Part shown: piece after piece, positions 1-23,041 of the stretch | Layout: every line of letters begins with the position of its first letter | Numbering within the stretch: position 1 is the first letter of the stretch | Source: an uncultured bacterium | GTDB taxonomy: Bacteria; UBP15; UBA6099 | DNA: 23,041 nt | Direction: 5' to 3' | Assembly (NCBI GenBank): GCA_964409645.1 | Contig: CAYPEK010000005.1 | Coordinates: forward strand, 43,939-66,979 | Translations under genes and position numbers: made by a program | The notes under the pieces: generated by a model | Database searches by the model: none | Told to the model about the DNA's origin: nothing | The model's input: the letters and a program-made list of their open reading frames with translations, nothing else

Positions 1-3000
1 CTGATCCGTGTAACCGCTGCACGATGTTCCCATATCCGTACACGACGTGCCGGTCCACGTGCAGGCGACGTCCGCGCCGCACGCATATTCGATAATGTAT
101 TCCGAGCAAGATGCAAGTTTGTCGAAGCAAGCACTGATGCTCCCGCTCCAGATGCAGGTCGTGCCGCCGATGCAGCTTGTCTCATCCGAGTAACTCGAAC
201 AACTCGCGGCCGACATTTCGCAGAGGTTGCCGGAGCCGCAAATACCGGAGTTGCATTCCGTTCCGCTTGTGCACGCGCATCCGATCGGATACGGCGGAGA
301 GATCGGGCAAAGCTCGCAGTACGCGTTAGTCTGATCCCACCAGCACGTCGGGTCGGAAACGCAACCGGTTTCCGCATACGATGTGCACGCGTTGGTCATC
401 ACACAGAAGGCGCCCGTCCACGTGCAGGTTGCATCGTTCATGCAGGTCGTCTGGTCCATATAGCTCGCGCAGGTCGATACGCCGATCGCCTCGCAGGAAG
501 TACCGTTCCACGTGCATTCGGTATCCGTGTTACAGGATGTCTCGTAAATATATCCGGTGCAGTCGGCCAGATCTTGGTCGCACTGCGTACTCAAGGCATT
601 CCAATTGCAGTTCGCATCCGCCTCGCAGGTTGCCTGATCCGTATAGCTTATGCATCCACCTGTGAGCGAAACGCAGTCCGTTCCGTTAAACGTGCAGAAC
701 GCGCCGTGCATGTTACACCACATCGTGTCAGCCGACAGGTATGAGCACTGGCTGACGGCGTCTGTGAACTCTTGGCAGGTCGAATAATCTGTATTCCAGT
801 AACAACTGGCCGAATAAGTGTTGCAGGAAGCCTGATCCGTGATGGACCCGCAGCCTGAGCCGCCGTTCATCACACACAGCGAGTACCCGCTGTCCCACGC
901 GCAGTAGGAGTCCGAAGTACAGGTTGTCTCATCTGTGTAGTTCTGGCAGCAGTCGAGCGGGCAGTACATCGTCGATTCGCCGGGTTCACAACTCGTATTC
1001 CCACATGTCGGCTGGTTCATGCATGAATAGTTGCCGAAGCCGTCGTTCATGCAGACGTACGGGTCGCAGCAGGAGCCGCCGGACATACAATCAACTCCGT
1101 ATGCGAGGCATGCCGTGCCTACGTTGCAAGTGGACAATCCACTGTCCCACACACATCCGTAAGATACGTTGTTTGCAGTACAATCAACTTCATTAAGAAT
1201 CGAAGCACAGAATGCCGCGCTTACTCCGAGACATTCCGTCCCGTTGTACGTACAGATACTGTGCGTTCCGCATGCCGTCTGATCGAAGTACATGCACTGA
1301 GCTTCGTTATACAAGCCTTCGCACCATGTGCTTTCCCACACACACGCCACGTCGGCGTTGCACGCCACCTGATCCACGTAGTTCGTGCAGCTTGTCAGCG
1401 AACCACCGGCGTAGCACTTCGATTCCGTACCGTTCCAAGAACAATAGACGTCGGAGCTGCACGAAGTTTCATCAGGGTACGACAAGCAGCAGTCGCTCGG
1501 GCAAGTGATAGTTGTTTCCGTCCCGCTGCAGACTGTGTCGCCGCAGACCGTCGCATCCGTACAGGACGAAACTCCGTAGCCGTTATCCAAGCAAACGAAC
1601 GGCGAGCAGCAGGTGCCGCCGCTTGTGCAGTCCGCGCCGTACGTGATACAAGCTACTCCGCCCACGTCGCAAGATGTGCCGTTCCACGTGCATCCGTACG
1701 TGCCGGCCGCATTCACGCAATCCGTCTCGTTCGTAATCACCTGACAGGCTGCTGCGTTGATTCCAACACAATACGTTGTGAAAGTGCAGTAGCCGCCGTG
1801 CAGGCTGCTGCAATTTGTTTCGTCGAAATACATGCACTGGGCTTCTCCCGTGAATTCCGTGCAGTAAGTGCTTTCCCACACGCAGCCGGAGTTCCCGTTG
1901 CATTCGGTCTGATTCGCATAAGCCGAGCATCCGGAACTCGAAACAACACACGCGCTGTATTCAGTGAGCCACGTGCAGTTCGAATCCGTGGTGCATGACG
2001 TTTCGTCAGTGTATCCGGTGCACTGCGGGCCGCCTGCGTAGCATGACGTGCCGTCCCACGTGCAGTACGTGCCGTGTATCGTGCACCAGTTCGAGTCGCC
2101 GCTGAAGAAGCCGCAGTTGGCCGAATCATAGAACTCCATACAACCCGATACGCCGTCATAGTAACACGATGAATTGTTATTGCAGCTCGCCTGATCCGTG
2201 TACGCCGAGCAGCCGATTGCGCCGCCCGCCACACACTGCGAGTTTCCGGTGTCCCACGAGCAATAGACGTCGGAAGAACAAGTAGCCTCATCCGCCAAAG
2301 ACGGGCAGCAGTCCATCGGGCAGTACATCGTCGTTTCGCCGCCGTTGCAGGCCGCGTCGCCGCAGAATGTCGATTCAACACAAGAGGATACTCCGTAGCC
2401 GTTATCGACACAGGAGTACGGATAGCAGCAGGTGCCGCCGCTCGTGCAGTCCGTGCCTAACGAGAGGCATGAGCCGGTCGAACAAGTCGATGTCTCAGTG
2501 CTCCACGTGCATCCGTAGCTTGTGCACATAGCTTCATCGGTCGCCATAGAGCAATCAACAACCGACTGGGCCACTCCGCAGTAAGTATAAGTGTAATCCC
2601 ACTGGCAATTCGTGTCCGCTCCGCATGTGGCTTCGTCCATATGTTGCGAGCAGATACCGGCCTGCGTGAAGTGGCAGTAGCTGTTTGTGGCATCCCATTC
2701 GCAGCGCTCCATCATGTCATTCAAGCAGTCTGATTCATTAGCATGTATAAGTTGGCAATCGCCGTAGTTCGTATAGCAGTTGCCGGCCGTGTAGTTCCAC
2801 CCACAGTTAAAACTTACCTGACAAGTCGATTGATCCGTCACCGATTCACACAGAACCTCATTCGCGCAGACGTATCCGCTGGTTGTTTCCGTACAGACAC
2901 CGTTGCAGCATCCGACCGTTCCGCCGGGCACACAGCCCTGTCCCGCAGGCACGCATGTTCCGTTGTTCGTGAAGCAGAGCCCGTATGTAGTATCCCATAC

Positions 3001-5700
3001 GCAACTCAGATTTCCTTCGCATGTTGTCTGATCCGTCACCACGTTGCAGCCGTCCACCGGTACGCAGGATTCGACCATCCACGTGCAAGCGGAATTTGTG
3101 GAGCACGATGCGCTGTCGGAGTAGGCTTCGCATCCGGAGCCGCAATCGGTCGATTGTTCTCCGTTGCAGCAGACTCCGTCGCCCACCGTCAGATCGCAGC
3201 TCACGCACGTGTTATTTGTCTTATCACATGCCATGTAAGCTCCGCACTGATAATTATCCATGCAGTAACCTGCCGGGCATCCTTCATTGTCGGGGATTCC
3301 GGCGACATCCGGACACATATCGCACACATCCGGAAGAAGGTCGTTATCCATGTTCGCGGGTCTCGTGCTGACGCAGACGAAGCCGTTGCAGACGTCGCAG
3401 TACGCGCCGCTTGCATTGCCTACGCATTGTTCGTCAGTGAGGCACTGGACTGAACAGCCGTTGTTATAGGTGGAGCCGGCTTCCGTCGGACACGAGTCGC
3501 AGGAATCCGGGATTCCGTCCGTATCTGCGTCAGTCGGCTCAGTCGCCGCGCACATCCCCGTGCACTCATCATAGATTCCGCTGCAGCAGTCAGCCGGACC
3601 GAGAGCGGGCATCCCCGATTCGATACAGGCACAGTCGTTCGCGCACCAGCCGGCCGATTCGCCCGCCTCGCATACGCCGTCGAGGTCGCACATGCAGTCC
3701 TGCGGGCATGTGGCGTTATCTTCGGTCCCTTGGTCGAACCCGCAGAACCCGTCTCCGCAAACCGCGGCGCAGTCATTGCACCAATATTTGCTTTCATTCG
3801 AATCGCAGTAGCCGCTGAAATCGCAAGCGCAGTCGCTCGCGCACGAGAATGTTGTTTCACCGTTGTAATATTCACAAACACTATCGTTGTCGCACGTTGC
3901 AGTCGTCGAAGAAGATTTACACACCATCATCATCAGCGCCGAATCCAGCTCGCAGACGTTTGTCGCATCGCAGCAATCCGCCGCCGTTGCGCATGTTTCA
4001 TAAAGGCCGCTGCACACCGGGCAACCGCCGCTTGCGAGCGTTCCGGGAGCACACGGGCAGCCGTCTTGGCTGTTGATGACCGTGTCCGCGTCGCAGTCGC
4101 CGCTCGCCACCGAGAAGCTGCACCCGTTCGAGCATGTCGTTATAGTGCTGCCGCTACAGTCCACCGTACAACTGTTGACGCTTAATTCATAAGCATCACA
4201 GTAGCCGTCGCCGCACTTGCAGTCCGCCGGACAGCTCTGTGCTGTTTCCATATAATCACAAACTCCGTTGCTGTTGCATTCGCCCGAAACAGGTTCGCAG
4301 ACACCTGATACTGAGTTACAGAATGACGAAACAGTCTGGCTGCATTCGCTGGTGCTTGTGCAGGCACAGCCGAACGCCTTCGGGGCTATCGAGCATTCAT
4401 CCCTTACCGGACAAGTCTTTGTTGCCAAGTCGAGCGCGCTGCCATCGTAGCAGATACACCCGCCGGCGTCGTAGTCCGGATAGGAGTCCGCGGGGCAGGT
4501 ACAGTAGGAATTACTGTACGTATCCGGAGACATCCCAGCCGGGCAGGCCGCCGTGCATTCGCCTGTCAGCGGATTGATGTAAGGAGTCGCCGCGCCACAG
4601 ACACATGTGCCGGTGGTGTCCGGCACCATGCCCGTCGGACAGCCGTTCGAGCATGCGCCGCTGTCCGGGTCGAGATAAGTGCCTGTCGGGCACACGCAGG
4701 TCTTAGTTTCAGTATTAGCAACACGCGGCGACGGGCATGCCGTCACGCACGAGCCGTAAAATTCATCGAGGAAATATCCGGTGGGGCACGAAGTTGCGGC
4801 CGCCGGGCAGAAGTTATTCTGCGCCGAGCCGTACATGCAGGGGCATTCGTCCGCCGTGTTCGCCGCGCCGTCCGAATCGCAGTCCGTTTTCGTTGTGCTC
4901 AACAGATCGCAGCCTTCGGCATCCGTACCGGCCGGGCAGAGCTTCTGCGCCACTCCGGTATCGCTTACCTGAACACCGGTCTGGTTGACGCACGGTTCCG
5001 TTCCGTTCGCGACTTCAACCGAGTTCGTGATTCCGTCCGCGTCGCAGTCGCCGCTGCCTACCATGTAGTCGCAGCCCGCGCCCGCCGTGCCGGACGGACA
5101 AATTGTTGTGGATACCGTGGAAACGCATTTCTTTGCGTAGAAATCGAGATACATCGATGTCGCGCCCGAGGGGCACACGCAGAGGCCGTCTATCGCGTCG
5201 CCTACCTGACCGCCCGAGCATGTCGCCACGCATTTGCTCTGAAGTTCGTCGTAGTACGGCGTGCTCGCCGGGTTGCATATACATGAGTTAGTTGCGGTGT
5301 CAACTATGAATCCGTTCGCTGTCGGACATGAAGCTACCGACACGCAGTAATCTTCCGGCCCGAGAATCGTTCCGTTCGGGCAGTAACACGTACCGGTCGT
5401 GGTGTCCGCAACCTGTCCGCCCGTGCACGTATCCACGCACGCGCCGACCGCTTCGTCGAACACCTTTCCGCCGCATCTCGTATATGCCGGCATCTCGCAC
5501 ACCATCAGCGTCGAGTTCCACACCGTGCCGGAGGGGCACATGCATGTGCCGTCGGAGGCTTTCACCTGACCGCCGATACACGTTGTGGTCGCCGTCGTCG
5601 ATGTAACCTGCGTATAGAATGAAGAACACTTGCTTGTCGCAGCGTTCCAGTAGCAGTTCGTGTCCGTTTCGCAAGTTGTCTTGGTTGTAAGTGTTACGCA
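1..5700 (-). repeat. Array of diverged cysteine-rich protein repeats (unrecognised family) forming the bulk of the giant protein; continues beyond the window
   Basis: Recurrent roughly 40-45 aa modules of the form C-x-x-Y-x-D-x-x-x-C-x(5-9)-C-x-W-x(6-8)-C, e.g. CSAYTDQASCNNNSSCYYDGVSGC, CTGYTDETSCTTDSNCTWLTEYSAC, CSSYSDETSCIGGTTCIWSGSISAC. These are interleaved with a second module, CTSGGTCC-x-P-x-x-C-x-DNGYG-x-x-SC...C-P-x-DCC, that recurs three times, centred near nt 2435, 1610 and 1070. DNA copies are only about 70% identical, so these are old protein-level repeats, not recent duplications. Confidence 0.75.
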
Positions 5701-8211
5701 GCTTGACGGCTTGCTTGCCGCGTTCAGCGGATCGTAAACCGACTCGACTTCGTACTTATCGGTGAACCCGTCGCCGTCGGTGTCTTTATTATAAGGATTA
5801 GTTCCTATCGCCAATTCCTGAGAGTTCGAAAGTCCGTCCGAGTCGCAGTCGCCGGAGGGATTCGCCACCGCGTCGCACTTAGCCGCGCAGGCCGGGTCTG
5901 ACTTCGTGATCGTCACCGCGCTGTTGAACGCGTTGCAGTCCACGCCGTTCAGAACGAGGTCGCCGTCGCAGTCCGCGTATGGATCGGAGTTGTTGCAGCC
6001 GCAAAGCGTGTCTTCGTCCACCTTGCCGTCGCCGTCGTTGTCGATCCCGTCCTGAGATTCCTCGTCAGCCTTACCGTCGCGGTCGTTGTCCTTTGCGTCT
6101 CCGCAAACCATGTTGACGAGCACGCACGAACCGGCGGTCGAGCCGGCCGTTGTGTAAACCCACTGGCAACCCACGGACGCGAAGCACGTGTCCTTAGTCG
6201 TCAGCGCCGAGCATCCCGTCGCGGTTGACATGTTGGCGGGCGCGTCCTCGTCGATCAGACCGTCGAAGTCGTTGTCGATCCCGTCTATGGGGTCTTCGCC
6301 GATACGGCCGTCGCAGTCGTTGTCGATCCCGTCGCCCGGCGTCATTGTCGTTATCGACGGAATGCACGAGAAGCTGTTGATGATAACCGAAGCCACGGCG
6401 CTCTTGCCGCCGGGGATGTCCGCTTCAACCGTGAGCGGATTCTTCGGTCCTGTCTGAATCTGCATTTCCGCCTGAGCGTAATACTTACCGTCGCTCGCCG
6501 CGCCGGAGAGTCCGGTGATCGGCATCAGCGTCGAGTTACCATAAAGCGTTCCGGCGTCATCGTGGAAATTCACGAGCAAAGCGCCCGAGAACGCACTTGC
6601 CGATTTAACAACCACTCTCGCCTTGACCCCCGTCAGCCCGTTCTGCCACACGCGGGTCGGCGTGAGCGTCAGGCTCACATCCTCGATCACGAGTCCGAGC
6701 GCCGCGGCGTCCGTCGTCGCGCCCGAGTTCACTATCACTCTCGTTTCCTGCCCATACTGATCTTTCGCTACAAATTCGATCGATTTCGTGCAGTCTTTGA
6801 GGAACAATCCCACTCTCTCGAACATACCGTTGTCGAATTTCAATTGGGAATCGTTCAGAAGATTCGTTCCGTCCATTATCAACGACGCGCCCGGCGTAAC
6901 CGTTCCCGAAATGTTGACGTACGGGCAAGCCGTGAAACCTTCCGACGGGCTGTTGATCGTGAGTTCCGGCGGCCCTACCACATCGAGACTCACCGTCTGC
7001 GCCGCCGAGCATTCGATATTCTGCGCCGAGCACTCAACCGGAATGCTCAGTTCGCCCGCCGCGCCGAACGATACCTCGCCCGAGAACGAACCGCTTGCGT
7101 TCGCCTGAACCGTGGCATCGCCGATCTTGCATGTCGCGCCGGGAACTGTCGTTCCTTCAACCACCACCGAAGCGGCCGAAAGCGCAATCTCCGTAACATC
7201 CGGTTTGCTTATCGATACTTTACATTCTATTTCCGTTGTGCCGGTGGCCGTCTCCACCTTGGCCGTCGCGGTCGCGGTTCCGGTTGTTGTGTCAACCGTC
7301 GCCGTGCCTGTTGCCGATTCGACCTTGTCGAGCGGCTTGCCCACGCAGCGTCCGTTTGCTCCGCAGTCCTGACTGCAACATTCCGAGTTAGCGGCGCACG
7401 CGTCACCGTTCGGGATGCACGCCGTCGCCACCGCCTGCACTGTGCAAACGTTGTCCACGCAACTCTTCGAACAGCACTGCCCGTTGTTCTCGCAGGCCTG
7501 CGATGCCGGAAGGCAGGCGCCGCTCTTGAGCGCGTTGCTCTCGCCGGCGCACTGGCCGTTGTCGCACCTGCCGGACGCGCAGTCGTTATTGTCGTCGCAT
7601 TTATCTATTTCTTCATTAGTGACTTTTTTGGGCGGAGCCGGCGGCTGGCCTGAGTTGACCGATACCTGCTCGCCTCCCGTCGCCGTCACCGTCTGGCCCT
7701 GCGACGTTACGTCCATGATGCCGTCACGCACCGTTACGTTAGTTGTGTTCTCGGGAGTGTTCTCGATATCGCCTTCCGTTCCGCGAACACCGGCGACCGC
7801 CGTAGGGGTCGTAACCTTGAACGATGAATTCGGGTTCTGAAGCTTTTCCGCTTTCAGCTTTACTTTCCCCGAAAACAGATCGACATCCGTCTTCACCGTT
7901 TTAGTCTTCGGATCGATGTCGATGTTCTTCACCACGAAATTGGTGAACGGCGTGAGCTTGATTGTGTTCTGTGAGCTCCATTTGACAACCGCGGATGATT
8001 TCGCGCCCGTCTTAACGGCTGTGCCGTTAGGCAACAGCATATTATCTTTTGCCGCTTGCCAACTCCCTCCCGGCAGCATGACCTGAACGTCGCCGCTGAT
8101 AGCGGTCAGGGTCGCGCTGACGGGGATGGCGCGCAGCTTCACGGGGACTATCACTGCAATGGCAATAAGTACCATTGCAAGCAAAACCCATTTCATGCGC
8201 TTTTTACACAT
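1..8211 (-). CDS. Giant secreted cysteine-rich modular repeat protein, 5' portion only (at least 2,737 aa in window; C-terminus lies beyond the window start). Order of parts: signal peptide, FecR-like domain, CC-containing Cys-knot-like modules, Thr/Gly-rich beta-rich (Ig-like?) region, thrombospondin-type-3-like Ca-binding repeats, long array of Cys-rich repeats of unrecognised type.
   Basis: Reading the minus strand in the frame whose codons end at positions divisible by 3: ATG at 8211 (revcomp of cat 8209-8211) is preceded by GGGAGGG 5 nt upstream (revcomp of 8217-8223), with an in-frame stop just upstream at 8227-8229. A second in-frame ATG lies at 8196. The N-terminus reads MCKKRMKWVLLAMVLIAIAVIVPVKLRA, a charged n-region followed by a hydrophobic core, i.e. 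a signal peptide. I translated the whole frame by hand from 8211 down to position 1 and met no stop. This agrees with the ORF track, which shows no minus-strand ORF in that frame anywhere in 1..8211; the track demonstrably omits ORFs that run off the window edge. Hand-checked segments, e.g. nt 1-120, give ...KLASCSEYIIEYACGADVACTWTGTSCTDMGTSCSGYTDQ. Codon third positions are G/C-rich like the neighbouring genes. The high density of gca/aca triplets on the plus strand is the reverse complement of tgc/tgt Cys codons. Confidence 0.85.
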   Translation of the reverse strand, partial: MCKKRMKWVLLAMVLIAIAVIVPVKLRAIPVSATLTAISGDVQVMLPGGSWQAAKDNMLLPNGTAVKTGAKSSAVVKWSSQNTIKLTPFTNFVVKNIDIDPKTKTVKTDVDLFSGKVKLKAEKLQNPNSSFKVTTPTAVAGVRGTEGDIENTPENTTNVTVRDGIMDVTSQGQTVTATGGEQVSVNSGQPPAPPKKVTNEEIDKCDDNNDCASGRCDNGQCAGESNALKSGACLPASQACENNGQCCSKSCVDNVCTVQAVATACIPNGDACAANSECCSQDCGANGRCVGKPLDKVESATGTATVDTTTGTATATAKVETATGTTEIECKVSISKPDVTEIALSAASVVVEGTTVPGATCKIGDATVQANASGSFSGEVSFGAAGELSIPVECSAQNIECSAAQTVSLDVVGPPELTINSPSEGFTACPYVNISGTVTPGASLIMDGTNLLNDSQLKFDNGMFERVGLFLKDCTKSIEFVAKDQYGQETRVIVNSGATTDAAALGLVIEDVSLTLTPTRVWQNGLTGVKARVVVKSASAFSGALLVNFHDDAGTLYGNSTLMPITGLSGAASDGKYYAQAEMQIQTGPKNPLTVEADIPGGKSAVASVIINSFSCIPSITTMTPGDGIDNDCDGRIGEDPIDGIDNDFDGLIDEDAPANMSTATGCSALTTKDTCFASVGCQWVYTTAGSTAGSCVLVNMVCGDAKDNDRDGKADEESQDGIDNDGDGKVDEDTLCGCNNSDPYADCDGDLVLNGVDCNAFNSAVTITKSDPACAAKCDAVANPSGDCDSDGLSNSQELAIGTNPYNKDTDGDGFTDKYEVESVYDPLNAASKPSSCVTLTTKTTCETDTNCYWNAATSKCSSFYTQVTSTTATTTCIGGQVKASDGTCMCPSGTVWNSTLMVCEMPAYTRCGGKVFDEAVGACVDTCTGGQVADTTTGTCYCPNGTILGPEDYCVSVASCPTANGFIVDTATNSCICNPASTPYYDELQSKCVATCSGGQVGDAIDGLCVCPSGATSMYLDFYAKKCVSTVSTTICPSGTAGAGCDYMVGSGDCDADGITNSVEVANGTEPCVNQTGVQVSDTGVAQKLCPAGTDAEGCDLLSTTKTDCDSDGAANTADECPCMYGSAQNNFCPAAATSCPTGYFLDEFYGSCVTACPSPRVANTETKTCVCPTGTYLDPDSGACSNGCPTGMVPDTTGTCVCGAATPYINPLTGECTAACPAGMSPDTYSNSYCTCPADSYPDYDAGGCICYDGSALDLATKTCPVRDECSIAPKAFGCACTSTSECSQTVSSFCNSVSGVCEPVSGECNSNGVCDYMETAQSCPADCKCGDGYCDAYELSVNSCTVDCSGSTITTCSNGCSFSVASGDCDADTVINSQDGCPCAPGTLASGGCPVCSGLYETCATAADCCDATNVCELDSALMMMVCKSSSTTATCDNDSVCEYYNGETTFSCASDCACDFSGYCDSNESKYWCNDCAAVCGDGFCGFDQGTEDNATCPQDCMCDLDGVCEAGESAGWCANDCACIESGMPALGPADCCSGIYDECTGMCAATEPTDADTDGIPDSCDSCPTEAGSTYNNGCSVQCLTDEQCVGNASGAYCDVCNGFVCVSTRPANMDNDLLPDVCDMCPDVAGIPDNEGCPAGYCMDNYQCGAYMACDKTNNTCVSCDLTVGDGVCCNGEQSTDCGSGCEAYSDSASCSTNSACTWMVESCVPVDGCNVVTDQTTCEGNLSCVWDTTYGLCFTNNGTCVPAGQGCVPGGTVGCCNGVCTETTSGYVCANEVLCESVTDQSTCQVSFNCGWNYTAGNCYTNYGDCQLIHANESDCLNDMMERCEWDATNSYCHFTQAGICSQHMDEATCGADTNCQWDYTYTYCGVAQSVVDCSMATDEAMCTSYGCTWSTETSTCSTGSCLSLGTDCTSGGTCCYPYSCVDNGYGVSSCVESTFCGDAACNGGETTMYCPMDCCPSLADEATCSSDVYCSWDTGNSQCVAGGAIGCSAYTDQASCNNNSSCYYDGVSGCMEFYDSANCGFFSGDSNWCTIHGTYCTWDGTSCYAGGPQCTGYTDETSCTTDSNCTWLTEYSACVVSSSGCSAYANQTECNGNSGCVWESTYCTEFTGEAQCMYFDETNCSSLHGGYCTFTTYCVGINAAACQVITNETDCVNAAGTYGCTWNGTSCDVGGVACITYGADCTSGGTCCSPFVCLDNGYGVSSCTDATVCGDTVCSGTETTITCPSDCCLSYPDETSCSSDVYCSWNGTESKCYAGGSLTSCTNYVDQVACNADVACVWESTWCEGLYNEAQCMYFDQTACGTHSICTYNGTECLGVSAAFCASILNEVDCTANNVSYGCVWDSGLSTCNVGTACLAYGVDCMSGGSCCDPYVCMNDGFGNYSCMNQPTCGNTSCEPGESTMYCPLDCCQNYTDETTCTSDSYCAWDSGYSLCVMNGGSGCGSITDQASCNTYSASCYWNTDYSTCQEFTDAVSQCSYLSADTMWCNMHGAFCTFNGTDCVSLTGGCISYTDQATCEADANCNWNALSTQCDQDLADCTGYIYETSCNTDTECTWNGTSCEAIGVSTCASYMDQTTCMNDATCTWTGAFCVMTNACTSYAETGCVSDPTCWWDQTNAYCELCPISPPYPIGCACTSGTECNSGICGSGNLCEMSAASCSSYSDETSCIGGTTCIWSGSISACFDKLASCSEYIIEYACGADVACTWTGTSCTDMGTSCSGYTDQ
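5740..6345 (-). repeat. Thrombospondin-type-3-like Asp-rich calcium-binding repeats within the giant protein
   Basis: Translated motifs DGIDNDCDGRIGEDPIDGIDNDFDGLIDEDA, DNDRDGKADEESQDGIDNDGDGKVDEDTLC and GDCDSDGLSNSQELAIGTNPYNKDTDGDGFTDKYEVE. The D-x-D-x-D-G-x-x-D-x-x-D pattern is typical of TSP3 and OmpA-associated Ca-binding repeats. It shows on the plus strand as repeated gtcgccgtcgttgtcgatcccgtc-type runs. Confidence 0.65.
7642..8127 (-). other. FecR-like beta domain at the N-terminus of the giant protein
   Basis: Translated segment ...TAVKTGAKSSAVVKWSSQNTIKLTPFTNFVVKNIDIDPKTKTVKTDVDLFSGKVKLKAEKLQNPNSSFKVTTPTAVAGVRGTEGDIENTPENTTNVTVRDGIMDVTSQGQTVTATGGEQVSV. The alternating beta pattern with a central V-x-G-V-R-GT-E/F and a following V-x-V-x-x-G motif is what I recall of the FecR domain family (PF04773). 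Assignment is from memory, not from a search. Confidence 0.5.
8128..8211 (-). other. Predicted Sec signal peptide of the giant protein
   Basis: MCKKRMKWVLLAMVLIAIAVIVPVKLRA: basic n-region (KKRMK), about 18-residue hydrophobic h-region, A-x-A-like c-region (LRA). Exact cleavage site not determined. Confidence 0.6.
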
Positions 8212-8470
8212 AAATTCCCTCCCGATTTAATAAGGTTGTTTTTAGACAATGAAAAAATAATAATGCTGATACTATATTTGTTATTTTGAAGTTTATTCAA
8301 CATTATCACACAATCAAATCGAACATTACAATATATTTTACCACATAACAAGGTTTATGTGAAGTCCCTTTTTTTTCAGCCATTTATGGAACTTTTTTCC
8401 CTCCTTGCATGTCATAAATAAAAGGACATAAAAGTACGTCTTTAGTTTACCTATGATTTTATTGCTTGTC

Positions 8471-8510
8471 TGTGACCGGAGTCACTTTTTGGAGTGTGAT
8501 TATGGTCACG
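8471..8510. promoter_or_regulatory. Two tandem CRP-type operator boxes (TGTGA-N6-TCAC), 260-285 bp upstream of the giant gene start and about 20-60 bp past the stop of the Crp-family gene
   Basis: 8471-8486 is TGTGAccggagTCACt and 8495-8510 is TGTGAttatggTCACg. Each matches 9/10 of the E. coli CRP half-site pair TGTGA-N6-TCACA. Centres are 24 bp apart. The first box is followed by a T5 run. Confidence 0.45.
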
Positions 8511-8530: not shown

Positions 8531-9214
8531 TCAATACACCCTGTTTTTCAGACCGATCGTGTTTGTTATGACAAATGTGTTCTTTCTGATTCTTATATAT
8601 CCCATCGTTTCGAGCGTTTTCAGCGCCCGCGTCAGAGTCTCACGTGTCGTCCCGACGAGATTCGCCAATTCTGTCCGGCTGTGCGCCACGCTGATTTCGA
8701 TTCCCGCGTCCACTTCGCGGCCGCCCTCGACCGCCATATCGAGCAGGATTCTCGCCAGCCGTCCGCACACGTCAAGAAACACCAGACTTTCGATGTGCTC
8801 GTTGGCGTTCCTCAGCCTGCGGCCCAGAACCGCGATCACTTTTTTCGCCATTTCCGGATTGGATGTGAACAGCTTTAGAAAATCGTCCCGCCTTAAAACA
8901 AGCACTTCCGTCTTATCTATCGCCACCACCGAGGCCGATCTCGGCTCCCCGTCCAGCAGCGCCAGCTCTCCGAAAAATTCCGTCGGCTGCAATATACCGA
9001 CTATGAATTCCTTGCCCTCGTCATCCGTCAGAACAACTTTCACGCGACCGCTGATCAGTGAGAAAAACGTGTCGCCCTCATCCTGCTTGTGTATTATTGT
9101 CTCATTTTTATCATATTCCCTGACAAACGCCAGTTTGCCGAAACTGTCCAGTTCCTTGTCAGTCAGGCTCGAAAACAACGGCACTTTCTTCAATGCTTCT
9201 TTCACTGATATCAT
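8531..9214 (-). CDS. Crp/Fnr-family transcriptional regulator (cNMP-binding domain plus C-terminal HTH), 227 aa
   Basis: Complete ORF in the track. The N-terminal beta-roll cNMP-binding-like region reads ...FFGELALLDGEPRSASVVAIDKTEVLVLRRDDF. The C-terminal HTH reads SRTELANLVGTTRETLTRALKTLETMGYI. GGAGG lies upstream of the ATG at 9214 (revcomp of 9222-9228). There is no N-terminal Cys cluster, so it is not FNR-type. Confidence 0.9.
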   Translation of the reverse strand: MISVKEALKKVPLFSSLTDKELDSFGKLAFVREYDKNETIIHKQDEGDTFFSLISGRVKVVLTDDEGKEFIVGILQPTEFFGELALLDGEPRSASVVAIDKTEVLVLRRDDFLKLFTSNPEMAKKVIAVLGRRLRNANEHIESLVFLDVCGRLARILLDMAVEGGREVDAGIEISVAHSRTELANLVGTTRETLTRALKTLETMGYIRIRKNTFVITNTIGLKNRVY

Positions 9215-20302: not shown

Positions 20303-20782
20303 TTATGCGACGTCTCTTTTTTCCTCGGAGTCGCGAAGCGATACACATATTTCTATCCTGTGCTCGCCAAGAAACATCGGAACCACAAGCGATTTGGAAC
20401 AGTTAAGTAACGACAACTCGGAGCCGTCTATAACATAAGGCGGCGTAATTTCACTCATAAAACCTTCCTCCGATAAACCCGTCATCGCATTCGAGACCAA
20501 GATGTCGGTCAATTCCGCCACTGCGCTCTTCCCAAGCTCATCGAGCCCGTTATTCTCTCCGACCATCTTGACGGCGATGCTTTCCGCGCAAGCATTCGAC
20601 ATCGACATCACAACCTGTCCGTTCAGACGGCCGGTGACGCCGATTACCACAGCAAACTCTCCTGTTGTCCTGAATAATCTATTCTTTAAATAATACCGTC
20701 CTATGGTCGGTTTCTCGCCAACCATTTCCCCGAATATTTTCGTAATAGACTCGTTGAAGTAATTCAGCTGCTCGACCTTCAT
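20303..20782 (-). CDS. cheX: CheX-family (CheC/CheX/FliY-like) chemotaxis phosphatase paralogue 1, about 160 aa
   Basis: The track ORF 20303..20833 starts MYTLRIVFRAKKREGQQMKVEQ. I prefer the internal ATG at 20782 (MKVEQLNYFNESITKIFGEMVGEKP...), which has GGGAGGGG about 6 nt upstream and the canonical CheX N-terminus. The stretch VVIGVTGRLNGQVVMSMS plus the ITPPYVIDG and VVPMFLGEHRIEI motifs match CheX. The putative catalytic pair reads AELTD (E-x2-D), not the E-x2-N of CheX2. Confidence 0.75.
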   Translation of the reverse strand: MKVEQLNYFNESITKIFGEMVGEKPTIGRYYLKNRLFRTTGEFAVVIGVTGRLNGQVVMSMSNACAESIAVKMVGENNGLDELGKSAVAELTDILVSNAMTGLSEEGFMSEITPPYVIDGSELSLLNCSKSLVVPMFLGEHRIEICVSLRDSEEKRDVA

Positions 20783-21086
20783 TTGCTGCCCCTCCCGTTT
20801 TTTTGCACGGAAAACTATCCGCAGGGTGTACAACTTTCCCGGCGTAACTTTTCCGGCTCCCTCTCTTTTTGTGCTTCCAACTGGTTAGACGTCGATTTTG
20901 GCTGTTTTCCGGTAATTTTTTTAAAATTATTTTTTGTTTGTGAAAAGCAACTCTGTACTTGCCCATTGTCAATTCAAGGCTCGCCGGACAGCAACACAAT
21001 GCCGCATGGCAACAAATTTGTCCAAAACAGCATTTCTATAGTTGAATTTTGCTAATTGAAAACAAATTGTCGCTGCCGACGGCCTG

Positions 21087-21563
21087 TTAAGCCGCCGTTT
21101 CGGCAAGCGTGAGGTTAACTTCCAGAGTTCCCGCGCCCATGTTCAGAGGAATCACCACCGTTCGGGAATTTGGCGGCCCCGTGATCGCCATCCCCGAGCC
21201 GGTAAAAACATGCGGCGGGGTTATATCGCACGTGTAACCGGCCTCCGCAAGTCCGATAGTCGCATTCGCCGCGATCATATTCGACATCTCCGCCAATGCA
21301 CTCTGTGCCACCTCATCGAACGCGTACACCTTCGGCTCCATCATCATCGCAGCCGCGATGTTCTTTGCGGATTCCTCGGAAAGCGTGATCACCATGTGCC
21401 CCGAAAGATGCCCCGTCACGCCCACAACCACCGCCACGTCATTCGATTCGTACGTAAGATGATCTCTCAAAAAAACCTTTCCCATCGCAGGTTTTTCAGA
21501 AATCGACTCCTCGACGATCTTGACCACGGACTTTATGAACGGATTGAGATATTCAACTTTCAT
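21087..21563 (-). CDS. cheX: CheX-family chemotaxis phosphatase paralogue 2, 158 aa
   Basis: MKVEYLNPFIKSVVKIVEESISEKPAMGKVFLRD...VVVGVTGHLSGHMVITLSEESAKNIAAAMM...LAEMSNMIAANATIGLAEAGYTCDITPPHVFTG...VVIPLNMGAGTLEVNLTL is a near-textbook CheX, with the E-x2-N motif present. GGAG lies upstream of the ATG. Confidence 0.82.
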   Translation of the reverse strand: MKVEYLNPFIKSVVKIVEESISEKPAMGKVFLRDHLTYESNDVAVVVGVTGHLSGHMVITLSEESAKNIAAAMMMEPKVYAFDEVAQSALAEMSNMIAANATIGLAEAGYTCDITPPHVFTGSGMAITGPPNSRTVVIPLNMGAGTLEVNLTLAETAA

Positions 21564-21837: not shown

Positions 21838-21864
21838 TCCAAAAAAATCGGTGGTGGAACCATC

Positions 21865-23041
21865 ATGAGATCATTCCGAAGACTAATTATACCCGCCTTT
21901 ATTGCGGGAATTTTAATTGTTCATGCGGGGGCTTTGTTCGGCGCCACTCCACAACTAATAAACTATCAAGGTTACCTGAAACAGAGCGGCAAGCCGGTCG
22001 ATGGCAACCTGAGCATGGAATTTGCCTTGTACAATGCACTGACAGGCGGTTCGCAGCTCTGCACCAGCGGCACGCAGACAATCACTGTGACCAAAGGCCG
22101 CTTCAACTTTCAGATCGGTTCCGCCGGCTGCGACCTCTCGACTATCGACTGGAATGCAAACTCCGTTTATCTCGAAATCATTGTTAATGCTTATACCCTT
22201 TCCCCCCGCGAACAAATTATTGCGAGCGGGTACTCTCTTTCGTCAGACAAACTCGACGGACTCGACTCGACCGCGTTCCTGAAAACAACCGGAGGCAGCC
22301 TTACCGGCGCGCTCGGCGTGGCGGGCGCTGTCTCGGCTTCCGGAACAATCAGCACCACTACAACAAGCAGCTTCAACGCACCCGCAAGCGGATACTTCAA
22401 TTTCGGCGCCCTCCTCGGAACAACCGGTTATGGTTTCCGAGACAACGCAGGCGTGCTCGAATACAAGGACAGCTCCGGAAGCTGGATAGCTTTCAATACA
22501 CTAGGGGCTGCAGGCAGCTACTTAGTCACAACGGGCGGCACGATGACGGGGCAGATTACTTCGACGGTCGCCACCGGCACCGCCCCGTTCGTGATTACAT
22601 CCGGCACGAAGATCACAAACCTCAACGCCGACACGCTCGACGGGATCGACTCGTCGGCATTCGCAACCGCCACTCACACTCACACTGGTTACATGGCTTC
22701 GACTACCGATAACTGGGTTAACACAACCGGCGACACCATGACCGGACAACTCACTTCGACGGTTGCCACAGGCACAGCCCCGTTCGTTATCACGTCCGGC
22801 ACTAAAGTCACCAACCTCAACGCCGACACACTCGACGGGATCGACTCGTCGGCATTCGCAACCGCCACTCACACTCACACCGGCTACATGGCTTCGACTA
22901 CCGACAACTGGGTCAACACAACCGGCGACACAATGACCGGTCAACTCACTTCGACGGTTGCCACCGGCACAGCCCCGTTCGTGATTACGTCCGGCACTAA
23001 AGTCACCAACCTCAACGCCGACACACTCGACGGGATCGACT
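21865..23041 (+). CDS. Secreted tail-fibre-like repeat protein, 5' portion only (392 aa in window; runs off the right edge)
   Basis: ATG at 21865, with an in-frame stop upstream at 21820-22. Hand translation: MRSFRRLIIPAFIAGILIVHAGALFGATPQLINYQGYLKQSGKPVDGNLSMEFALYNALTGGSQLCTSGTQTITVTKGRFNFQIG..., a signal peptide followed by an N-terminal module of the form INYQG-x-L-(x6-7)-P-(x1-2)-G-(x3)-M-x-F-x-(I/L)-Y. From memory this module opens many bacterial and phage proteins annotated as tail-fibre-domain-containing. It is followed by 65-aa tandem repeats containing LNADTLDGIDSSAFATATHTHTGY. It is absent from the ORF track because it is open-ended. Confidence 0.75.
   Translation, partial: MRSFRRLIIPAFIAGILIVHAGALFGATPQLINYQGYLKQSGKPVDGNLSMEFALYNALTGGSQLCTSGTQTITVTKGRFNFQIGSAGCDLSTIDWNANSVYLEIIVNAYTLSPREQIIASGYSLSSDKLDGLDSTAFLKTTGGSLTGALGVAGAVSASGTISTTTTSSFNAPASGYFNFGALLGTTGYGFRDNAGVLEYKDSSGSWIAFNTLGAAGSYLVTTGGTMTGQITSTVATGTAPFVITSGTKITNLNADTLDGIDSSAFATATHTHTGYMASTTDNWVNTTGDTMTGQLTSTVATGTAPFVITSGTKVTNLNADTLDGIDSSAFATATHTHTGYMASTTDNWVNTTGDTMTGQLTSTVATGTAPFVITSGTKVTNLNADTLDGID
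22531..23041 (+). repeat. In-frame 195-bp (65-aa) tandem repeats, 2.6 copies in window, inside the tail-fibre-like gene
   Basis: Copies run 22531-22725, 22726-22920 and 22921 onward. Copies 2 and 3 are about 96% identical, with only synonymous differences in the part visible. Copy 1 is about 88% identical with 3 aa changes. Unit: TG(G/D)TMTGQ(I/L)TSTVATGTAPFVITSGTK(I/V)TNLNADTLDGIDSSAFATATHTHTGYMASTTDNWVNT. The minus-strand ORF 22522..22944 in the track is an artefact of this repeat. Confidence 0.9.

Follow-up and report, generated by a model that had tools for sequence, protein, structure and literature searches.

A giant Cys-rich modular protein with a FecR head in an uncultured UBP15 bacterium, probably an exported envelope or extracellular fibre

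The 23,041-nucleotide (nt) stretch of DNA described here, called the window below, comes from an uncultured bacterium of the UBP15 lineage UBA6099 (assembly GCA_964409645.1, contig CAYPEK010000005.1, positions 43,939 to 66,979). One end of it is occupied by a giant minus-strand gene, cut by the window edge, whose product carries a predicted N-terminal secretion signal, a conserved head with a FecR domain and a very long tail of small Cys-rich modules. We think that this product is probably a Sec-exported, elongated fibre of the envelope or the extracellular space, stabilised by Ca2+ and disulfides, which would serve as an adhesin, matrix or coat protein. UBP15 (Ca. Lagoxiota) is a candidate phylum of six genomes of 2.6-4.6 Mb and 51-60% GC, recovered from black smokers, digesters and wastewater (PMC11382960). 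The GC content of the window, ~56%, lies within that range. The gene, its modules and its upstream region are laid out as follows, in window coordinates, with amino acids (aa) numbered from the ATG at 8211.

1..8211, minus strand: giant open reading frame (ORF), N-terminal 2,737 codons, cut by the window edge; the full gene has ~3,355 codons
8209-8211, minus strand: start codon ATG, with a 5-nt spacer to the Shine-Dalgarno sequence
8217..8223, minus strand: Shine-Dalgarno sequence GGGAGGG, as read from the DNA
8128..8211, minus strand: signal peptide (aa 1-28), from reading the sequence; predicted signal peptidase I cut after LRA, before IPVSATL
7612..8127, minus strand: conserved head (aa 29-200), 48-59% identity across the family
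7720-8016, minus strand: FecR domain (aa 66-164), PF04773, E=2e-10, 41.4 bits against a cut-off of 24
7345..7599, minus strand: DC-x-SG-x-C module and two knottin-framework modules (aa 205-289), from Pfam and Cys spacing
7243-7344, minus strand: Thr-rich linker (aa 290-323) before the immunoglobulin (Ig)-like domains
6379..7242, minus strand: three Ig/FN3-like beta-sandwich domains (aa ~324-611), from their Ig-like folds
5707..6336, minus strand: acidic region of Ca2+-binding type (aa 626-835), with DGxDNDxDG (MopE-like) motifs and bacterial thrombospondin type 3 (TSP3) repeats
within 5707..6336, minus strand: isolated CxW module (aa 664-696) inside the acidic region
within 4435..5700, minus strand: CxW module (aa 838-862), PSI match at E 0.018
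within 4435..5700, minus strand: two C-x-GG-Q...C-x-C-P-x-G-T repeat blocks (aa 878-1035 and 1112-1259), 39% identical
within 4435..5700, minus strand: TSP3-like segment of Ca-binding type (aa 1036-1110) separating these two blocks
3133..4434, minus strand: region of mixed small modules (aa 1260-1693), laid out by regular expressions
1..3132, minus strand: CxW-module array (aa 1694-2737), 23 strict copies of C-x8-C-x5-C-x-W-x6-C with ~6-aa linkers
within 1..3132, minus strand: knottin-framework insert (aa 1753-1782), from its Cys framework
within 1..3132, minus strand: three ~60-aa knottin plus CGD inserts (knots at aa 1915-1944, 2188-2217 and 2368-2397), from their Cys framework
within 1..3132, minus strand: GCxC module (aa 2644-2664), from regular expressions
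8472-8485 and 8496-8509, no strand assigned: pair of CRP-type palindromes GTGA-N6-TCAC in the 320-nt AT-rich leader between regulator and giant gene
8531..9214, minus strand: Crp/Fnr-family regulator with cNMP-binding and HTH_Crp_2 domains (Pfam 94.7 and 57.8 bits), directly upstream on the same strand

Translation of the minus strand from 8211 to 1 gives 2,737 codons with zero stops. The base composition of the strand sets the stop probability at 0.0376 per codon (about one stop per 27 codons), and the chance of so long an open frame is ~1e-45. An earlier note on this DNA, made from the letters alone, had proposed a single frame open from this ATG to the window edge, preceded by a well-spaced GGGAGGG, absent from the ORF track and continuing beyond the window, and each of these points held. 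The gap to GGGAGGG measures 5 nt, the frame is missing from the ORF list because the lister leaves out any ORF that is cut by a sequence end, and a sister-strain copy is called at 3,355 residues. Two peptides quoted in support of knot-like modules are found at aa 244-256 (GQCCSKSCVDNVC) and aa 276-289 (SECCSQDCGANGRC).

The sister contig, Logan ERR7570003_765 (77.7 kb), was found by exact-match look-up of the Crp-like protein of the window, with which it is colinear at 95.2% nt identity over 11.5 kb. This independent assembly agrees with the frame, with no more than 3 gapped residues in 2,737. Of the 3,355 residues called there, 3,227 are readable, and the last 128 come from a fragment (P0094); the reconstructed C-terminus, '...CTWNSGMNTCDSL', falls within a CxW repeat module. 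A chance or antisense frame, or an assembly artefact, might be imagined in this GC-rich region, which has long alternative ORFs on the opposite strand. Such an explanation has to face the ~1e-45 computed above, curated-domain matches that lie in the giant gene's own frame, orthologues in many metagenome-assembled genomes (MAGs) and the colinearity of an independent assembly. Nor does the DNA contain tandem repeats: Tandem Repeats Finder returned two trivial arrays only, none of note, and the protein repeats are thus old and not created by assembly. We give an artefact next to no chance, and it is effectively refuted already; the gene is genuine and its full length is established.

Cys accounts for 10.9% of all residues and for 12-16 per 100 aa from ~aa 900 on; the earlier note had rightly pointed to a high Cys content in the repeats, and its value of 10-13% was slightly too low. 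The protein is extremely acidic (~340 kDa, pI ~4.05 for the mature part), with 3% K+R against 12% D+E and K+R near zero in the C-terminal half. Comparison of the two strains shows all 298 Cys residues unchanged, while 7.3% of the other residues differ, and under uniform substitution the probability of zero Cys changes is ~4e-10. Divergence is otherwise patchy, with identity down to 73.5% at aa 2401-2600 (nt ~412-1011) and 86.5% at aa 601-800, and several other 200-aa blocks 99-100% identical. This patchiness suggests recombination or gene conversion among the repeats. Faster evolution of the giant gene than of its flanks was considered and rejected at the nt level (95.2% versus 95.0% identity).

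The N-terminus has the three parts expected of a signal peptide, as had been proposed: a basic n-region (KKRMK), a hydrophobic core of 15 residues and a junction, x-x-A followed by [IVL]PV, that is kept in 16 homologous loci. It has no lipobox. This reading of the sequence and the conserved junction argue for cleavage of a Sec signal. The FecR domain, also foreseen from the letters, lies well above the curated cut-off. Outside the clade, the nearest relatives of the head are stand-alone FecR proteins of 150-345 aa only. Lsa33, LipL45 and Lsa19 of Leptospira likewise have an N-terminal signal followed by FecR (PF04773); unlike these lipoproteins and adhesins, the giant protein lacks a lipobox and carries a Cys-rich tail of ~3,000 aa that is found only in its clade. 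NCBIfam gives partial matches over aa 14-203, in which the head alone aligns, and the scores against the Lsa33 and LipL45 models (NF047849, 75.7 versus 420 bits; NF033165, 39.2 versus 350 bits) do not make it a member of either. An anti-sigma regulator of the FecI/FecR/FecA type was rejected: only 7 residues precede the hydrophobic segment, leaving no cytoplasmic domain, and no extracytoplasmic function (ECF) sigma-factor or TonB-receptor gene is among the neighbours.

Behind the head, aa 233-289 reach the Pfam cut-offs of two inhibitor cystine knot (ICK) families, Toxin_27 (25.6 bits, cut-off 25) and Omega-toxin (24 bits, cut-off 22), in agreement with the CC-containing knot-like modules described earlier. 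Their Cys framework is C-x6-C-x5-CC-x3-C-x4/5-C, and the more general form C-x6-C-x5-CC-x3-5-C-x4-10-C is present 7 times in the protein, including five internal copies whose ICK matches fall below threshold. The 'CTSGGTCC...DNGYG' module picked out by eye is a further knottin-framework unit, followed by a CGDxxC...CPxDC unit. ICK peptides, or knottins, have the six-Cys C-C-CC-C-C framework in common with the giant protein, but they are free animal toxins, whereas here the putative knots are embedded units of a giant bacterial protein. One could think of a polyprotein precursor cleaved to release knottin-type toxins or inhibitors, given that the N-terminal modules reach ICK toxin cut-offs and that seven knottin-framework units are present. 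This is highly improbable: the knots make up less than 8% of the length and have no conserved flanking processing sites, K and R, the usual residues of dibasic cleavage, are almost absent, and the remainder of the protein is structural (Ig-like domains, repeats of Ca-binding type, CxW arrays).

The three Ig-like folds that follow match adhesin extender domains. In the acidic region behind them, bacterial TSP3 (PF18884) scores 39.2 bits against a cut-off of 25, in 3 stretches, which bears out the TSP3-like repeats recognised at first sight; the ORF in the window holds nine DxDxDG motifs. The motifs DxDxDG and DGxDNDCDG are shared with thrombospondin type 3 and MopE repeats, and PF18884 is above cut-off, whereas the eukaryote-type TSP_3 model (PF02412, aa ~1560-1660, 23.8 bits, just under the cut-off of 25) and the MopE-type, putative metal-binding model (PF11617, 18.7 bits, E 0.002) stay below theirs. 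The repeats of the giant protein also differ from both in being interleaved with Cys modules. The C-x-GG-Q blocks gave sub-threshold Pfam matches only (CBM_14, TIL, EB, EGF_Tme5), and we call them furin/epidermal growth factor (EGF)-like from the motif. The mixed region at aa 1260-1693 holds a GC-x-C-T...C module, CGDxxC...CPxDC units and a knottin-framework unit (aa 1400-1431).

The bulk of the tail is built from the CxW module, a unit of 31 aa (G-G-C-S-x-Y-x-[TD]-[EQ]-x-T-C-x-x-D-P-x-C-x-W-[DN]-x5-C). With a looser pattern, ~45 copies are counted in the sister strain, over its 3,227 readable residues. The copies form super-repeats of ~180-270 aa that are 40-49% identical; a repeat of 45 aa, as first proposed, is not the dominant period, which is ~31 aa. 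These internal repeats were found by chunked BLAST, a self-BLAST of the whole protein having given the identity match alone. A PDB search with the whole protein sequence returned noise only (OmpA, E 0.15; Rab-3D, E 0.47). The 31-aa module is without a matching model in Pfam and NCBIfam, and Pfam assigns nothing to the repeat in 7 of 7 CxW-bearing proteins scanned. Of the earlier description, ~1,900 aa of Cys-rich repeats of no known family, the lack of a curated match stood; the main repeat is not peculiar to the giant protein, as the searches below make plain. AlphaFold2 modelled four consecutive modules, with an alignment of 47 paralogous four-module windows, at a predicted local distance difference test score (pLDDT) of 82.2; in the model, each module consists of short helices followed by a beta-hairpin.

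With 11% Cys in a protein from an anaerobic lineage, MopE-like motifs (PF11617, cited above) and a weak match to yeast metallothionein (E 0.08), one may ask whether the ~370 Cys residues are kept reduced in an anoxic, sulfidic habitat, as a periplasmic or extracellular thiol-rich buffer that binds Fe, Zn, Cu or Ni, handles sulfide or absorbs redox stress. The arrangement of the residues makes this quite unlikely. They lie in fixed four- and six-Cys frameworks of disulfide type (ICK, PSI/VSG C-terminal domain) together with a conserved aromatic core, W being present in 21 of 25 CxW modules, and AlphaFold2 confidently models the modules as compact minidomains. The CxC and CxxC clusters seen in metallothioneins are absent, and both metal-related Pfam matches are below cut-off (14 bits versus 25 for PF11403).

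Relatives of the CxW module were sought by fold and by profile, the fold neighbours being taken from the PDB. Foldseek placed semaphorins and plexins in 14 of the 20 top matches (36-56 aligned columns), together with the C-terminal domain of the variant surface glycoprotein (VSG) of trypanosomes, all at E 1.5-10. When a four-module profile was run against the PDB, that VSG C-terminal domain again came out first (2jwg, E 0.015), its cysteines following the C-x8-C-x5-C-x-W pattern of the module. A profile of one module, made from copies of bacteria, archaea and eukaryotes, returned five matches, three of them VSG C-terminal domains of Trypanosoma brucei, the best at a marginal E 0.011. In Pfam, PSI (PF01437) stayed below its gathering cut-off of 23.1 with 15.8 bits (E 0.018) for the giant protein and 17.8 bits (E 0.004) for a relative (P0052), and no VSG C-terminal-domain family was among the matches up to E 10. 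With so tiny a domain, every one of these scores is marginal. Even so, the four independent searches converge on the VSG C-terminal and PSI families and on nothing else, all with weak scores.

The VSG C-terminal subdomain has four cysteines (PMC1868767). As a four-Cys minidomain with the spacing of the CxW module it resembles that module, at marginal scores, but it occurs as a single or double domain next to the glycosylphosphatidylinositol (GPI) anchor, whereas CxW modules are arrayed in tandem. The PSI domain has ~8 Cys residues, including CxxC and W-C; the CxW module, by contrast, has 4 in ~31 aa and scores below the PSI cut-off. We thus describe the module as VSG-CTD/PSI-like (CTD, C-terminal domain), on evidence that is weak but consistent, and assign it to neither family. 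A literature search found no paper linking VSG C-terminal domains with PSI.

The module is far from confined to this bacterium. The homologue search proposed at the outset for the repeat was made as an exhaustive hmmsearch of 1.84 billion representative proteins with the four-module profile, and it recovered 1,715 proteins at E<=1e-3 (447 reaching 1e-10 and 106 reaching 1e-30) from bacteria, DPANN archaea, Euglenozoa and choanoflagellates. Many of them reach 5,000-7,575 aa, and the profile matches these in 40-62 stretches. Named sources include the kinetoplastids Bodo saltans, Papus and Apiculatamorpha, the diplonemid Rhynchopus (6,530-6,951 aa) and the choanoflagellates Didymoeca and Helgoeca; the module is abundant in free-living Euglenozoa. 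In DPANN archaea, arrays occur in an Aenigmatarchaeota 'PGF-pre-PGF domain' protein and in a Woesearchaeota protein (P0058 and P0086, 2,543 and 2,670 aa). Many of the 1,715 proteins have KDEL-like tails and others have signal peptides of the lipoprotein type. Pfam and NCBIfam thus have a gap here: the module is unmodelled in both, yet 1,715 or more representative proteins, spread over all three domains of life, contain it, among them kinetoplastid and diplonemid proteins of 5,000-7,500 aa.

As a side observation, some proteins of 500-870 aa consist almost entirely of CxW modules (P0030, P0034, P0036, P0041, P0043, P0045, P0050, P0060 and P0128) and end in SDEL, HTEL, KDEL, RSEL or HDEL; two are named as choanoflagellate (Didymoeca, Helgoeca). 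These tails suggest that proteins resident in the endoplasmic reticulum are also built from the module.

The abundance of the module in Euglenozoa and choanoflagellates, the plexins and semaphorins among its fold neighbours and the near-threshold eukaryote-type TSP_3 match might also mean that the giant protein attaches an epibiotic or predatory bacterium to eukaryotic or other host cells, by way of eukaryote-like matrix modules shared through inter-domain transfer. We regard this as unlikely. The module is also present in DPANN archaea and other prokaryotes, so that any transfer could have run in either direction, and there are no host-interaction genes nearby.

The giant protein as a whole has a much narrower distribution than its repeat. 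When the whole ORF was compared with 5.8 billion protein clusters, seven relatives only (1,541-3,672 aa) came back, annotated, where named, as 'FecR domain-containing protein'. Alignment of the conserved N-terminus against species-representative genomes yielded 17 loci in ~10 MAG species, one of them UBP15_UBA6099. The combination of a FecR head with a Cys-rich tail is found in the UBP15-like clade only, and amino-acid identity within the family is 47-64% while the DNA has diverged. Genomes typically hold two paralogues, type A with at least two knot modules and type B with one. Complete type B proteins, as a side observation, have 1,421-1,827 aa, end in '...CVGE/DxMG(G)QPN' and are encoded without a Crp gene or CRP boxes. 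In another family member (P0007, aa ~480-700), many CGDG...C repeats, which presumably resemble the Myxococcus cysteine-rich repeat, stand in place of the middle part with its Ca-binding-type and EGF-like modules, an instance of module swapping. The last 40-60 residues of two long members (the 3,601-aa ORF L015, and P0002) are Arg/His-rich, e.g. 'GSRHRLLGIHRLHGMHHRRRLRVERH...', and look like Cys-repeat DNA read out of frame, probably through assembly frameshifts. Literature searches returned nothing on a family of giant FecR-headed Cys-rich proteins, and nothing on UBP15/Lagoxiota biology or on FecR linked to Cys-rich giants.

Such plasticity invites a comparison with the coats of protists. 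Module number and type differ greatly between species (1,421 to >3,672 aa), strain divergence is patchy (73.5% at aa 2401-2600 versus 100% elsewhere), there are two paralogues per genome, the CxW module resembles the VSG C-terminal domain, and a weak match to Paramecium_SA (E 0.011) was obtained. By analogy with VSG, with the VSP proteins of Giardia and with the surface antigens of Paramecium, the giant protein could then be a variable protective coat and not an adhesin, that is, a dense, fast-diversifying shield against phage, grazers and proteases, with the plastic array of Cys modules as its exposed, variable part. We consider this unlikely. High abundance, lattice formation and a switching mechanism are without support, the gene is no more divergent than its flanks at the nt level, and in VSG the C-terminal domain lies buried and is not what varies (PMC1868767).

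All 11 type-A loci whose flanks are long enough have the Crp-like regulator upstream of the giant gene; its identity is 59-82%, a higher degree of conservation than that of the giant protein. No other neighbour is conserved, and none that would serve secretion or anchoring keeps its place beside the giant gene. The two GTGA-N6-TCAC boxes, just past the stop of the Crp-like gene, are the only ones in the window, against 0.05 expected. In 10 other type-A loci this box recurs, 190-356 nt ahead of the giant gene; no type-B locus has it. As the half-sites are conserved and the spacers vary, a protein-binding site is indicated and not a hairpin. The 320-nt leader has no Rfam match up to E 1, and the whole window has none at gathering thresholds. 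Control of the giant gene by the Crp-family protein through these predicted boxes is what the arrangement suggests, and the conserved regulator/operator pair offers an experimental entry point.

Taken together, these features probably describe an exported fibre of the envelope or the extracellular space. Complete homologues and the reconstructed C-terminus have no recognisable C-terminal sorting domain, and export is for that reason assigned to the N-terminal signal: the Sec machinery would export the giant protein by this signal, which would be cleaved off. The conserved head, made of FecR, the knots and the three Ig-like sandwiches, would be the functional or docking end. Acidic repeats that may bind Ca2+, together with small modules of fixed Cys framework, would build a rigid but evolutionarily plastic stalk of EGF/furin-like, CGD and knottin-framework units and, above all, of more than 40 CxW copies in the full-length protein. 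The invariant Cys residues would form disulfides within each module, which, along with bound Ca2+, would stiffen the chain and confer resistance to proteases. The adjacent Crp-family regulator, of the cyclic-nucleotide type, would switch expression of the fibre through the two boxes in the leader.

Several points weigh against an exported fibre of this kind. Beyond the Sec signal, no localisation signal was found in the protein. There is no conserved adjacent secretion or anchoring partner that would take a 340-kDa protein across the outer membrane, and the product could be retained in the periplasm. The bacterium belongs to an anaerobic lineage, with an aldehyde:ferredoxin oxidoreductase gene in the window and MAGs from digesters and groundwater, and the disulfides are putative. 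The geometry between modules is uncertain in the AlphaFold2 model (predicted template modelling score, pTM, 0.53), and we infer the elongated shape. Finally, the CRP boxes lie ~270-300 nt upstream of the ATG.

Known giant adhesins (MpIBP, the LapA type, SiiE, Bap, invasin/intimin) rely on a C-terminal signal for the type I secretion system (T1SS), on type V secretion systems or on LPXTG anchoring. To our knowledge, the RTX, Ig-repeat and LPXTG giant adhesins depend on Ca2+ and are essentially cysteine-free. Compared with giant Ca2+-dependent adhesins that have Ig-like extenders, the protein described here has 11% Cys and an N-terminal Sec signal; its ORF has no HemolysinCabind match, and it ends in a CxW module with no C-terminal signal of the T1SS type. 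It would function much as they do, yet RTX repeats and T5SS or LPXTG signals are absent from it too. We rate it as a giant modular surface protein of known type, in which an uncatalogued and unusual building block is combined with a regulator of its own. A Sec-exported protein of ~3,350 aa with ~370 conserved Cys residues, in an uncultured anaerobic candidate phylum, would represent a different way to build a surface fibre, and one has to ask by what means these bacteria would oxidise and export it.

A broader view of the module can be proposed tentatively. The CxW module may represent an uncatalogued, ancient extracellular superfamily in Bacteria, DPANN Archaea and Eukarya, with arrays of at least 100 copies in free-living Euglenozoa, that includes the VSG C-terminal domain and, more distantly, metazoan PSI. 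The VSG domain would then have descended from a module of giant fibres, possibly with inter-domain transfer, and a disulfide-rich, Crp-controlled fibre such as that of the UBP15-like clade would be of a kind undescribed in prokaryotes. We hold this chain of proposals to be doubtful as a whole, but the VSG/PSI likeness of the module has implications for where the membrane-proximal domain of the trypanosome coat came from.

The rest of the window is ordinary for an anaerobe. It encodes an amidohydrolase, an epimerase, an SPFH protein, a xylose-isomerase-like protein, the aldehyde:ferredoxin oxidoreductase, a class II aldolase, an ABC permease and two CheX-like proteins; no tRNA was found in it. 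LptC and LptD genes on a homologous contig indicate a diderm cell type. The two adjacent CheX/CheC-like phosphatase genes (20303-20833 and 21087-21563, minus strand) are accompanied by no other chemotaxis genes in the window. At its far end, a second edge-cut gene (21862-23041, plus strand), also off the ORF list, has a signal-peptide-like start (MRSFRRLIIPAFIAGILIVHAGALFG) and ~58-aa tandem repeats ('...TGQLTSTVATGTAPFVITSGTKVTNLNADTLDGIDSSAFATATHTHTGYMASTTDNWVNTTGDTM') with no meaningful Pfam match; it may encode another surface fibre protein.

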